A DNA stretch of 64,000 nt, taken from the NCBI RefSeq assembly GCF_963678635.1, contig NC_087064.1:45985437-46049436 (forward strand), in the 5' to 3' direction. The translations under genes and the position numbers were made by a program. This stretch comes from Symsagittifera roscoffensis (lineage: Eukaryota). Below are positions 16,680-19,030 of the stretch, piece by piece (position 1 is the first letter of the stretch; every line of letters begins with the position of its first letter). The notes under the pieces were generated by a model. The model saw only the letters and a program-made list of their open reading frames with translations, was not told the origin of the DNA and searched no databases.

Positions 16680-19030
16680 ACTGAAGAGATTTCCGTGGAT
16701 TCAGCGTGTTTAAACCTGTAACAAAATTTCTGTGGATTCCGCGTGTAAAAGCCTGTAACGTAAGCTGTCGGCACAATTGTTTGGTCGTGGATTCCGCAAG
16801 AAGCGAATATAACTAGTTGTTCCAGATACCGCAACTGTATACGGATTCCGCACAATGTTGGTAGATTCCGCAAATGTAAAGGGAATCCGCAAAATTTGAA
16901 ACAGGTATCTTCATATGTAAGCGTATTCTAGTAGAGGCCCAGCTAAAGCTGGAATTATATCTGCAAAATTTTTTGATTTTGTTCAACTGATGCGGGATGA
17001 AAAAGGTAATTTCAAAAACTGAAAAAGTGGGCTTCATCAAATATTAGTTATTGCTCTAATAAAACATGAGTGAAATTTTTGTCAGTACGGAAATTTCCCC
17101 GGGAAAATTTTTTTGAACAAACTCTAGGGAAAAGCATCTTATTGCCTGTCGCCTCGATTAAACCCTTGATATCAGATTGAGTTGTTTTCGAGAGATGTCA
17201 AAAAGTTTCAAAAAAACGGACAAGAAATCAAAACATAGCCAATCGAACATTGGAAAAGAGTAATGAACGCAAGTAAACAGAAGAAAAAAAACATTGACTT
17301 CGTTGAAAAAATGGAATATCTTTATTTTGAATTTATTTCTTTCGAACTTCAAAAAAATGCCCTTTATGCTCTTTAAATTTCTAGAACAATTTATGACAGG
17401 CGCTTTTTTGATAACATTAACCCAACTTGAGAAAACTGGATCAACAGGTAAAAGTTTTTATTCCGCTAAAAATCCAAAAATTAAATTCCACTTTCGAAAC
17501 TAGAAATCGTACTAGAATTTTTTGCGCCATTTGCACGTTCGTATTTGAAGAGTGCCATTTACGAATTTCAATTGAACCCAAAAAGTGCATATATACCTAA
17601 TTGTATCAATAATTTAAGACTTTTTCCTGAAAAAAAAACAATAAAAATCAGCAAGACCTATATAAGAGTCTTCACTACGTTCATTTCTCGTAAACTTTGT
17701 CTTTTTCGAAGTCCATAATTTTTTGTTATAAAATTTGGATGTGCGCGCTTACACAGTGGAGCTTCGATCATCCTATTCTTTTCATTGAACCCAAAATCTC
17801 AGATTTTGGATGGTAGTTTTCGAGACAAGTTAAAAAAACTTGTTTTTGAGGGCGTAAACTTTTCAGTTAAAAACCTCGTGCGAAGCCTCCATGTAGAGGA
17901 ACTTCCTATATATCATTCAATCAATTGAACTCAAAATCTCAAATTTGGGAGAGCAGTTTTCGAAAAATTCAAAATATTTTAAAAAAAGGGTCGAAAAATC
18001 AAAAATTTGACTTTTCCGAAGGTCATAACTTTTTGTGTAAAAAATAGGCGTAACCGCTCAAGCAGGAGAGTTTTCCACAACCCAATCTACCCACTGAAAC
18101 TAAAACTCAGATTTGGGAGGGTAGTTTTTGAGAAAAGTCAAAAAAATGAAGAAAAAAAATCTCAAAAAATCTCATATTTTGGTTTTCCGAGGGCGTAAAT
18201 TTTATAGTAAAAAATTTCGTGGATATTCTCCATGCAGATGAGCTTCTCACATATCATTCAGTCAATTGAATTCAAAATCTCATATTTTGGAGATTAGTTT
18301 TCGAAAAAAGTCAAAATGTTTCAAAAAACGGTCAAAAAATCCGAAGGTCATTCCTTTTTGTGTGAAAAAAATTGGGCGTAACCGTTTATACAGGAGCGCT
18401 TTCCACAACCCGTTCGACCCATTGAAACAAAAAAAAACAGATTTGGGAGGGTAGTTTTCGAGAAAAGTCAATAAGATTGAAAAAACGGTCAAAAATCGAA
18501 AATTTGACTTGCTGAAGGCTATAACTTTTTTGTATAGAAAAAATTTGGACATAGCCGCTTATGCATGGGAGCTTCTGACATCCTGTAGCTGTAGGTAGAT
18601 TAAAGGGAAAAGACTAGGGAATTATGCAGGCGAGCAGGGGACTGGGCAGACTTCCCAATGGTACCACTTTTTTGAAAATCGGCTGAGTAATTTTTGAGAA
18701 AAACATTTTTTTGAAAAAGGTAAAAAAAATTCCAAAGCGTCTGAAAAAACAAAAAATATACAAAAACTCAACCCCTTACATTTTTCTTATACATGTTTTT
18801 ACCAAACAAGATTTTTGTTAGTGGATTCCACAGACTGTTCCGGATTCCGCAAATTCTGTTGTGAATTCCGCTAAGTCGCCGGTTTTTAGAGCGAATTTGA
18901 GTGATACTCTGTATTAGCTATTTGTTTGTGGAACCCAAAACAAAAAAGAAGATCAAAGAAAAAAAAACAAAGTTGCGAATTCCGCAACAAACTTGATTTT
19001 GGCCTGTTGCGAAATCCGCTTAAAATTCAC
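16680..19030 (+). mobile_element. Composite element about 2.35 kb long: subterminal GGATTCCGC motif arrays flank about five copies of a ~178-bp internal tandem repeat.
   Basis: Motif clusters lie at 16690-16900 (6 copies) and 18815-19025 (5 copies). The internal array is at 17700-18585. The shared 3' block ends …tccaaagcgtctgaaaaaac…. Confidence 0.55.
17234..17690 (+). mobile_element. MITE family A (about 450 bp): 5' CATAGCCAATCGAA…AGAGTAATGAACGCAAGT and 3' …CTTCACTACGTTCATTACTCTT, with TIR ~AGAGTAATGAACG.
   Basis: Terminal inverted repeat plus shared internal sequence. Other copies are listed in the entries below. Confidence 0.6.

Follow-up and report, generated by a model that had tools for sequence, protein, structure and literature searches.

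Two clusters of a short motif, GGATTCCGC, stand on either side of a satellite-like tandem array in the genome of the acoel worm Symsagittifera roscoffensis, and their arrangement raises the question of whether motifs and array are parts of one mobile element or of several. The original prediction, made from the window studied here (the whole 64,000-nucleotide stretch of contig NC_087064.1, to which all positions below refer unless a locus is named), favored a single composite transposon of CACTA or hAT-like type. Here we describe evidence that region 16561-19094 is instead a three-level nest of unrelated repeats, a reading to which we give a probability of about 80%.

The outermost level would be a non-coding motif-bearing element of ~0.62 kb (16561-16898 plus 18814-19094), in all likelihood a cut-and-paste DNA transposon of the non-autonomous, MITE-like kind, with an interior that probably held about a dozen GGATTCCGC-type motifs, some of them forming a ~20-bp minisatellite. 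Into this minisatellite, at AAAATTTG^TTAGT, a different dispersed repeat, built of a unique head, ~171-bp tandem units and a tail, appears to have inserted as a 1.9-kb copy truncated at its 5' end, thereby splitting the motifs into two apparent flanks; this copy probably already contained a ~460-bp repeat from yet another, third family. The motif arrays would therefore merely resemble flanks of the satellite, because the satellite-bearing repeat inserted inside the motif-bearing element. Our comparisons drew on sampled worm DNA, ~394 kb for the motif count and ~300 kb of non-redundant DNA for copies of the motif-bearing family. Host genes on the contigs fall into clusters with RefSeq proteins of S. 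roscoffensis at an identity of at least 90%, and the contigs share with the window a copia gag (94% identical) and all three repeat families.

Motif arrays and satellite as independent families

Exact copies of GGATTCCGC occur in the two motif-bearing halves at 16734, 16789, 16843 and 18842, and only once more within the 64 kb, at 39206 on the minus strand; 0.20 would be expected per window by chance, and none of 100 shuffles reached five. When one mismatch is allowed, the window contains 14 matches against 5.4 expected, 11 of which sit at 16697-16890 (six) and 18823-19017 (five). Orientation is uniform across the 11 except for the near-palindrome GCGAAATCCGC at 19009, so that the five to six same-orientation motifs originally described at each end are confirmed with this one exception. 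The left set (16697..16890, plus strand) has its first two motifs within a 37-bp duplication, reported by TRF at 16689-16759, and its last three spaced ~20 bp apart, and its blocks align one-to-one with two copies elsewhere, L016a and L016b. The right set (18823..19017, plus strand, from a scan allowing at most one mismatch) comprises three motifs ~20 bp apart and two that are near-palindromic, GCGAATTCCGC and GCGAAATCCGC, the last of which corresponds to a perfect 5+1+5 palindrome, GCGGATTCCGC, in the copy at locus L001. A degenerate motif, GGAACCCAG, lies near the left end at 16629..16637 (plus strand), a position conserved in the multiple alignment, where its counterparts are GGATTCCAG (L016b), GGATTCAAG (L016a), GGATTCCAA (L009) and GAGTTCCAG (L001).

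Beyond the window, motif-bearing sequence was found at four loci in the worm contigs, one each in L001 and L009 and two in L016, bringing the family to five copies in the ~300 kb of non-redundant DNA. None of the four carries satellite units. Copies are 66-85% identical, and so are old, and only two of the five keep both ends. The two L016 copies (14941-15450 and 4475-4090) have the motif arrays, each with 9-10 motifs at up to two mismatches and with ~20-bp units (GGATTCCGCAAAATGTAAGT) repeated in runs, and they lack the satellite. When TRF was run on the window flanks rejoined at four choices of junction, it called no ~20-bp array and only the 37-bp duplication; the ~20-bp array of the window copy is therefore too degenerate for TRF, while it is visible by eye there and clear in L016a. 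No further motif-bearing copies were found at the additional random loci L011-L015 and L017, a 30-nt conserved block from the left end had no match among JGI metagenome contigs, and neither 16400-16932 nor 18801-19300 has a match elsewhere in the window.

The L016 copies also provide an insertion-free homologue of the locus. The joined window halves align collinearly over the junction with both of them, and the satellite-bearing insert is absent from the homologous position in each; in L016b the homologues of window positions 16898 and 18814 are 77 nt apart, as against 1.9 kb in the window. Conversely, satellite-bearing sequence occurs apart from the motifs. A second, fuller copy lies at 9680..11180 (plus strand) with no adjoining motif arrays, the tail of a third, cut by the window edge, at 1..180 (plus strand), both found by self-alignment, and others are in L005 (one) and L007 (two); for all five, the 400 bp on either side contain no GGATTCCGC motif. 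The copies originally reported at 9770-11170 and 1-180 are thus real as copies of the interior, and they do not extend to the flanks.

The two families are mutually independent, and a composite non-autonomous transposon, in which subterminal GGATTCCGC arrays would surround a ~178-bp satellite core of their own and move with it as a unit, deserves almost no credence. Tandem-repeat-containing MITEs of like design are known, such as DTC84 in a clam (PMC3879986), and it is true that the motif sets flank the array on both sides in the same orientation and that the interior recurs elsewhere in the window. Against this, motif flanks and ~171-bp core do not co-occur in any of nine other copies examined, and the interior copy at this locus lacks 5' sequence that its relatives have, as expected of an insert and not of a core. 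Copies elsewhere without the motif arrays had been named in the original prediction as what would overturn it, and since the two kinds of sequence occur separately, that is what we find, in both directions (five satellite copies without motifs, two array copies without satellite). The proposed superfamilies fare no better. CACTA elements have the termini 5'-CACTA/CACTG...TAGTG/CAGTG-3' and a 3-bp duplication, and hAT elements have YARNG termini and an 8-bp duplication. Here the termini are CGAAACT... and ...AGTTAAGA, neither CACTA/CACTG nor YARNG, the CACTG at 16680 stands 119 nt in from the left terminus, and neither a 3-bp nor an 8-bp duplication is present, the latter because the 8-nt flanks differ (catgagta versus tacatttt).

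Ends and nature of the motif-bearing element

The left half (16561..16898, plus strand) is delimited by BLAST homology that starts at window position 16561 with L016a and 16562 with L016b and ends at 16891 and 16898, respectively; it is collinear with both and also matches L001 and L009. The right half (18814..19094, plus strand) is defined by homology to L016b (18814-18861 versus 15307-15353, 85%) and to L001 (19005-19056 versus 13486-13435, 85%), which by eye extends to ~19094. The ends of the unit so defined are inverted. The left terminal repeat, CGAAACTATTTCAT (16561..16574, plus strand), matches the reverse complement of the right one, TCTTAACTGTTCAT (19081..19094, minus strand, aligned with the L001 left end TA|GGTCAAACTCATTCAT), at 10 of 13 aligned positions counted by hand, and YGAAAYT is found at the left-type end of four of the five copies (window, L001, L016a and L016b), with TGGCATT in L009. 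Further in, offset by a ~26-nt indel of the right end relative to the left, is a 22-nt inverted repeat with arms CATTAAGAGGCAAAACTGTGCA (16572..16593, plus strand) and 19035..19056 (minus strand) that are 91% complementary (20/22), a match equalled in only one of 60 shuffles; it encloses all motifs and the insert, and the copies in L001, L009 and L016 have CATTAAGAGGCAAAACTGTGCA-type sequence at their ends too. A TA dinucleotide lies just outside each terminus (16559..16560 and 19095-19096) and may be a target-site duplication. TA|YGAAACT is also seen in L001, where a complete copy of only 251 bp has the same two end types, TA on both sides (13393-94 and 13646-47) and one motif near each end. 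The TA flank is exact in two of the five left-type ends; in L016b and L009 it is shifted by 1-2 nt, and L016a has none. These flanks are only suggestive, as TA is common by chance in DNA of 34% GC.

Several features are those of a MITE or other non-autonomous transposon with terminal inverted repeats: the inverted repeats stand at the limits of the repeated unit, which is short (~620 bp without the insert), non-coding and present in multiple copies in different flanks. The longest open reading frame overlapping either half is 79 amino acids, and when the concatenated six-frame translations of both motif flanks were searched against a collection of 5.8 billion proteins, 7913 word candidates yielded none at E<=10. 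It is unlikely that the sequence is multi-copy for another reason, being either a segmental duplicate or a piece of some larger element that carries a minisatellite, with inverted ends that are coincidental. An inverted match as good as 20/22 arose somewhere in one of 60 shuffles of the 3.1-kb region, the TA duplication is weakly backed, a clear right end is missing in L009 and both L016 copies, and no autonomous partner or transposase was seen in the ~300 kb of non-redundant sampled DNA, all of which could speak for such an origin; however, the inverted repeat is placed exactly at the homology limits of independent copies, and the minimal L001 copy, reduced to two ends with one motif near each, has the pattern of transposon internal-deletion derivatives.

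What the motifs do can be judged only by analogy. If the element is MITE-like, a transposase supplied in trans would recognize its inverted ends, and the same enzyme might also recognize the quasi-palindromic GCGGAWTCCGC sites near them. A reasonable, if tentative, reading of the arrays is as putative transposase-binding sites in a non-autonomous DNA transposon, since they belong to a short non-coding multi-copy element with inverted ends, and even the minimal L001 copy has a motif close to either end. Motif variants are chiefly CpG-to-TpG/CpA changes, and neutral decay of a minisatellite grown by slippage fits them equally well; we drew no conclusion on constraint from the information content of the motif, since the units had been chosen by their match to the core. 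A host cis-regulatory cluster of transcription-factor sites, adjoining the satellite by chance, had been offered originally as an equal alternative, and we consider it very improbable. The motifs are dense, quasi-palindromic and in one orientation, and their core GGAA/TTCC, we presume, resembles half-sites of several transcription-factor families. Yet arrays with these conserved ends are found again at unrelated loci (twice in L016) and therefore belong to a repeat family, eight of the nine exact motif copies in the ~394 kb of worm DNA (~0.8 expected by chance, from composition) fall inside that one family, and no gene was detected near the arrays. A regulatory role may have been co-opted by some copies of what we take to be a transposon.

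The satellite-bearing insert and its possible mode of spread

The insert (16899..18813, plus strand) was delimited by alignment to its other copies: window 9789-11175 and 27-170, L005 13354-11974 and L007 6376-5125. Its boundaries are uncertain by ~4 nt because TTTG stands on both sides (16895-16898 and 18814-18817), and both they and the potential 4-nt TTTG duplication are read from a single site. A unique head (16899-17232; 16933-17232 is 71.6% identical to 9789-10097) is followed by tandem units that match window 10184-10930, and by a tail (18591-18813; 18652-18800 is 69.7% identical to 27-170). The array itself, at 17691..18590 (plus strand), consists of ~5.5 diverged ~171-bp units, recognized from a TRF period of 170, from repeat families D6, D13 and D18 and from self-matches (17692-18154 versus 18002-18485). 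Its periods are 170, 171 and 172, family D13 is spaced at 171, 172, 171 and 179 and at 140, 168, 173 and 157, and the units are only 65-80% alike. The original description of the interior as a ~178-bp tandem array was right as to tandem structure; the period is about 170-172, and the array occupies 17691-18590 rather than the whole interior.

Within the first 171-bp unit lies the repeat of the third family (17233..17690, plus strand, ~460 bp), recognized by its matches in the window: it is 76% identical to 34415-34888 and 43219-43672, and ~10 more fragments are present. The L005 copy bears it too, with an identical 3' junction, so both copies received it from a common ancestral copy. A second family of tandem repeats in the window, with units of ~165 bp, behaves like the ~171-bp carrier. 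Searches of the whole window with ARAGORN and with Rfam at gathering thresholds found no RNA genes, and the published spliced leader sequence does not occur in it. A permissive Rfam search (16400-19200, E<=1) gave a sole match, to SNORD18 at 17168-17239 inside the insert, which is sub-threshold (21.8 bits versus a gathering score of 41, E 0.73).

How this repeat spreads can be addressed only tentatively, and we regard two routes, as a Helentron-associated or pearl-like rolling-circle element or by retroposition, as possible but doubtful. The rolling-circle route is suggested by a modular design also seen in DTC84 and in oyster elements (PMC3879986, PMC7492417), in which repeats of ~160-170 bp stand between a left and a right flank, and the order of head, units and tail is identical in the window copies, L005 and L007, with central repeats between conserved end modules. 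The T-rich insertion site and the T run (TTTTT) at the 3' boundary, at the one site resolved, recall HINEs (PMC4067079), and the AAAATTTG^TTAGT site is equally compatible with the 4-nt TTTG duplication. In window copy 2, head and tail also match in inverted orientation over 11 nt (10/11), which would suit this route; L005, L007 and copy 1 show no such match, no microsatellite is present, and the 3' hairpin is no better than in shuffled sequence in five of six copies. Retroposition would accord with the 5' truncation of the inserted copy by ~100 bp or more and with the possible TTTG duplication, but there is no poly(A), A-rich or simple-repeat tail, and ARAGORN found no tRNA-like part.

Two more specific candidates were rejected. 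A conserved 3' stem-loop in the tail was discarded on DNA folding of six tails (z versus shuffles of -1.8, 0.1, 0.07, 0.74, 1.19 and 0.75), and a canonical Helitron (5' TC, 3' CTRR) on the grounds that conservation among copies runs past the candidate CTAG and that homology among three copies extends at least ~100 bp beyond the candidate TC on its upstream side.

Relation to known systems

In the En/Spm (CACTA) and Ac/Ds (hAT) elements, a short motif is repeated many times, in both orientations, over the few hundred bp next to the ends. The motif-bearing element is like these in its clustered short motifs near the ends of what is probably a cut-and-paste element, and unlike them in its termini, in having no 3-bp or 8-bp duplication and in the single orientation of its motifs. 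Another parallel is the Arabidopsis MITE Emigrant, of the Tc1/mariner-pogo superfamily, in which the transposase of the pogo-like partner Lemi1 binds repeated internal motifs cooperatively (PMC1636448). Both are short non-coding elements with terminal inverted repeats and repeated motifs inside the ends, and TA is present at both flanks of the window and L001 copies, there as a candidate duplication only. The two have no sequence relationship and no partner transposase was seen for the worm element, in which the putative binding sites, some of them arranged as a ~20-bp minisatellite, fill the greater part of the interior and lie in one orientation.

The published analysis of S. roscoffensis used automatic RepeatModeler and LTR-retrotransposon searches and assigned ~61% of the genome to repeats, mostly LTR elements (PMC9911081). 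Our findings correct the reading of a locus at which motif clusters around a tandem array mimic a composite transposon and are actually the product of nested insertion, which is useful for curating acoel repeat libraries, and they supply seed sequences, with rough boundaries, for three families not yet curated: the motif-array MITE-like element, the head-units-tail satellite carrier and the ~460-bp repeat. They would bear on an open biological question only if the motif is a functional binding site. We think it quite unlikely that the GCGGAWTCCGC-type motif is a genuine protein-binding site, for transposase or host factor, multiplied in a TA-flanked MITE family, and that the ~171/~165-bp arrays also ride on Helentron-like rolling-circle elements; if so, motif-bearing MITEs would scatter ready-made multi-site binding platforms through the acoel genome.

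For the insert, the relevant tandem-repeat carriers are DTC84 and pearl in bivalves (PMC3879986), HINE/DINE-1 (PMC4067079) and the oyster Helentron non-autonomous elements with satDNA-like arrays (PMC7492417). No Helentron was found in the DNA examined, and the subterminal inverted repeats (12-13 bp in Helentron-associated elements) and 3' stem-loop are not conserved here. Unlike the known carriers, the repeat has no microsatellite module, and its head of ~300 bp and tail of ~220 bp compare with ~50 bp in those elements. Like them, it has a conserved left module, one to six tandem ~160-170-bp cores and a conserved right module, and it is scattered as short arrays at many loci; Helentron-like carriage, if true, would extend the satellite seeding described in bivalves and insects to Xenacoelomorpha.

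Two repeat families, one nested within the other

The region at 16561-19094 holds two independent multi-copy repeat families, one nested within the other: a non-coding, motif-bearing host element of about 0.62 kb with inverted ends, present as two halves (16561-16898 and 18814-19094), and, between them, a satellite-bearing repeat (16899-18813). The original prediction was of a single composite element, a satellite core with the motif arrays as its own flanks. Five satellite-bearing copies lack the arrays, which the prediction had itself named as counting against it and as the sign of a satellite with incidental flanks, and the converse, arrays without ~171-bp units, is found in both array copies at one comparison locus (L016). 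Copies were sought in a genome sample of 17 loci, amounting to about 330 kb of which some is allelic duplication, from contigs that share the copia-type gag ORF of the window (23628-24449; Pfam Retrotran_gag_2 and zf-CCHC). Relatives of this ORF at 94% identity are confined to long contigs in three ENA assemblies, whose host genes cluster at 90% identity with RefSeq proteins from an acoel, Symsagittifera roscoffensis. The window is packed with repeats at 30-40% GC; in the published genome, GC content is 36.7% and repeats make up about 61% (PMC9911081).

Both arrays and the interior lie between the arms of an inverted repeat of 22 nt (20/22), CATTAAGAGGCAAAACTGTGCA at 16572-16593 with its complement at 19035-19056; when the 3.1-kb region was shuffled 60 times, only one shuffle gave an inverted match as good. 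The same sequence recurs at the end of homologous short sequences at three loci: a complete copy of 251 bp, which has both types of end and one perfect palindrome, GCGGATTCCGC (L001 13395-13645), a copy with the left end only (L009 about 1545-1660), and two longer copies, L016b (14941-15450) and L016a (4475-4090, minus strand). In each of the longer copies the left end is followed by a conserved block, GGATAGGCGCACAATTTTGTGTCTGTATGT, and by 9-10 motifs, which in L016a include a clean run of ~20-bp units (GATTCCGCAAAATATAAGTG / GAATCCACAAAATGTAAGTG / onward); neither has a ~171-bp unit, and their homology to the window begins at 16561/16562. Since comparison of four complete ends (left and right, window and L001) carries the inverted repeat further outward, to TA-bordered termini, we place the element at 16561-19094. 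The window ends read TA-CGAAACTATTTCAT... and ...ATGAACAGTTAAGA-TA, with a terminal inverted match of 10/13 by manual count and a ~26-nt indel in the right end; those of L001 read TA-GGTCAAACTCATTCAT... and ...AGTTTCA-TA. The remaining three left ends have the TA shifted by 1-2 nt or missing. Taken together, the termini no more than suggest a possible TA duplication. The longest ORF overlapping either half is 79 aa, and a six-frame protein search found no protein relatives of the element. Against Rfam, 16400-19200 gave a single match with E of 1 or less, to SNORD18 (17168-17239, within the insert), which scored 21.8 bits where the gathering score is 41 (E 0.73).

In L016b, the counterparts of window ...16898 and 18814... 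are separated by 77 nt, and once its two halves are rejoined the window copy is collinear through the junction with each of the L016 copies. The L016 copies are the insertion-free counterpart of the window copy, which alone carries the 1.9-kb interior as an insertion. L016a reads ...CTCAAAATTTGTAGGCGG..., the window ...CGCAAAATTTG[insert]TTAGTGG...; TTTG is present at both insert borders, and may be a 4-nt duplication or simply reflect a T-rich target.

The satellite-bearing repeat

When 16400-19300 was compared with the window by BLAST, 16933-17232 in the head matched 9789-10097, the interior units matched 10184-10930 and 18652-18800 in the tail matched 27-170, while 16400-16932 and 18801-19300 had no other match within the window. 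The order head, units, tail recurs at L005 (about 13490-11975) and twice at L007 (about 6505-5125 and 16580-15790). Over 400 bp to each side, no GGATTCCGC-type motif was found beside any of the five other satellite-bearing copies, against six and five for the interior copy. The prediction of motif arrays around a tandem core was a real observation, yet loosely described: arrays and core are both present, but the period is 170-172 bp rather than 178, and the units, only 65-80% alike, occupy about 17691-18590, not the whole interior. The interior copy lacks ~100 bp or more of 5' sequence common to L005, L007 and the second window copy (9680-11180), a truncation that would suit spread by retroposition, although the repeat has no A-rich tail.

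A third family, a repeat of ~460 bp, lies inside the interior at 17233-17690. Further copies are at 34415-34888 and 43219-43672, with about ten fragments elsewhere (near 4917-5698, 13626-13954, 46719-46783, 49063-49145, 50127-51173, 51592-51943, 53020-53416, 54493-54993, 55501-55565 and 61251-61636). Because the L005 satellite-bearing copy has it at the same 3' junction in the first unit, with the 5' part deleted, it was inherited with a shared ancestor copy and not inserted here. Every 3' end carries a TATA-like box, GACCTATATAAGAGTCTTCACTACGTTCAT (12 boxes in 64 kb), and the published S. roscoffensis spliced-leader sequence is absent from the repeat, which may be a candidate SINE-like element or promoter-bearing unit.

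A second dispersed short satellite, with a period of about 162-170 bp, lies at 57236-58575 and at L007 1734-3450, L011 15870-16253 and L005 13487-13623, where one unit directly adjoins the head of the satellite-bearing repeat. A box on its reverse strand, GTAGTTTTCGAGA, is common to the ~171-bp units, and such short dispersed arrays seem to come in several related families in this genome.

Other features of the window

Around the gag ORF is a copia-type LTR retrotransposon remnant (22386-25360) with direct repeats of 241 bp, 97% identical (22386-22626 and 25120-25360), and an (AG)n microsatellite (22907-22979); the stretch from 22 to 26 kb has a strongly positive GC skew. A local segmental repeat block at 26836-44324, with copies 83-100% identical at spacings of about 2.28-2.5, 6.3 and 8.8 kb and internal inverted repeats (such as 27972-28075 with 28432-28535), looks like a unit of several kb that was recently duplicated, in tandem or segmentally. 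Another family lies inverted on either side of the motif and satellite region, about 6 kb apart (14473-15246 and 20599-21142, 77-92% identical), with direct copies at 32402-32907 and 41181-41696; the inverted pair are probably independent copies, not ends of one large element. A tRNA T-arm-like sequence at 9000-9060 on the minus strand (...GAGGTCGCAGGTTCA), where ARAGORN called no tRNA, may be a tRNA-derived SINE fragment. A 62-bp unit occurs three times at 63145-63330 (93% identity), and a 117-aa ORF at 1736-2089 (minus strand), with a weak WD40 match under the Pfam cut-off (E 0.009), may be a host-gene exon near the window start. At 46200-46300 lies an odd GC-rich palindrome of long homopolymer runs (G14 CGGACG C12, then more C and G runs), which includes a one-mismatch motif copy, GGATTCCAC, at 46249.

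Motif arrays, mobility and known elements

Exact GGATTCCGC occurs at 16734, 16789, 16843 and 18842, and on the minus strand at 39206; five copies compare with 0.20 expected by chance in the whole window, and 0 of 100 shuffles reached that count. With one mismatch allowed there are 14 against 5.4 expected, 11 of them in the arrays (six at 16697-16890, five at 18823-19017). With adjoining bases the approximate motif is G[T/C]GGATTCCGCAAA, and the two closest to the right end, GCGAATTCCGC and GCGAAATCCGC, are near-palindromic. Across ~394 kb, eight of the nine exact copies fall within the motif-bearing family, and a transcription-factor site cluster is not supported.

The host element would derive, in MITE-like form, from a cut-and-paste DNA transposon, and a transposase acting in trans would move it by recognising its inverted ends. 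The broader proposal, that a non-autonomous DNA transposon carries the arrays as repeats, survives for an element other than the one described; termini and duplication do not fit CACTA or hAT. The minimal L001 copy has exactly one motif close to each end, and a degenerate motif ~65 nt from the left terminus keeps its position in 5/5 aligned copies, the pattern expected of a subterminal binding site. Precedent comes from the Emigrant MITE and Lemi1, whose pogo-like transposase binds repeated subterminal motifs as well as the terminal repeats (PMC1636448). The motifs run in one direction throughout, however, and the variants seen most often, GGATTCCAC and GGATTCTGC, are products of CpG decay; both observations count against such a function, so that the motif is a putative binding site at best, and a rather doubtful one. 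The additional interior motifs most likely arose by slippage of the ~20-bp unit, since motif number varies among copies.

In its modular plan the satellite-bearing repeat resembles the tandem-repeat-containing elements of bivalves (PMC3879986) and Helentron-associated elements described in insects and oysters (PMC4067079, PMC7492417), although its copies do not conserve the defining features of those elements, subterminal inverted repeats and a 3' stem-loop. Nesting of transposable elements, repeated motifs inside MITEs and dispersed elements that carry short satellite arrays are all well known; the families seen here have probably not been described outside automatic repeat libraries.
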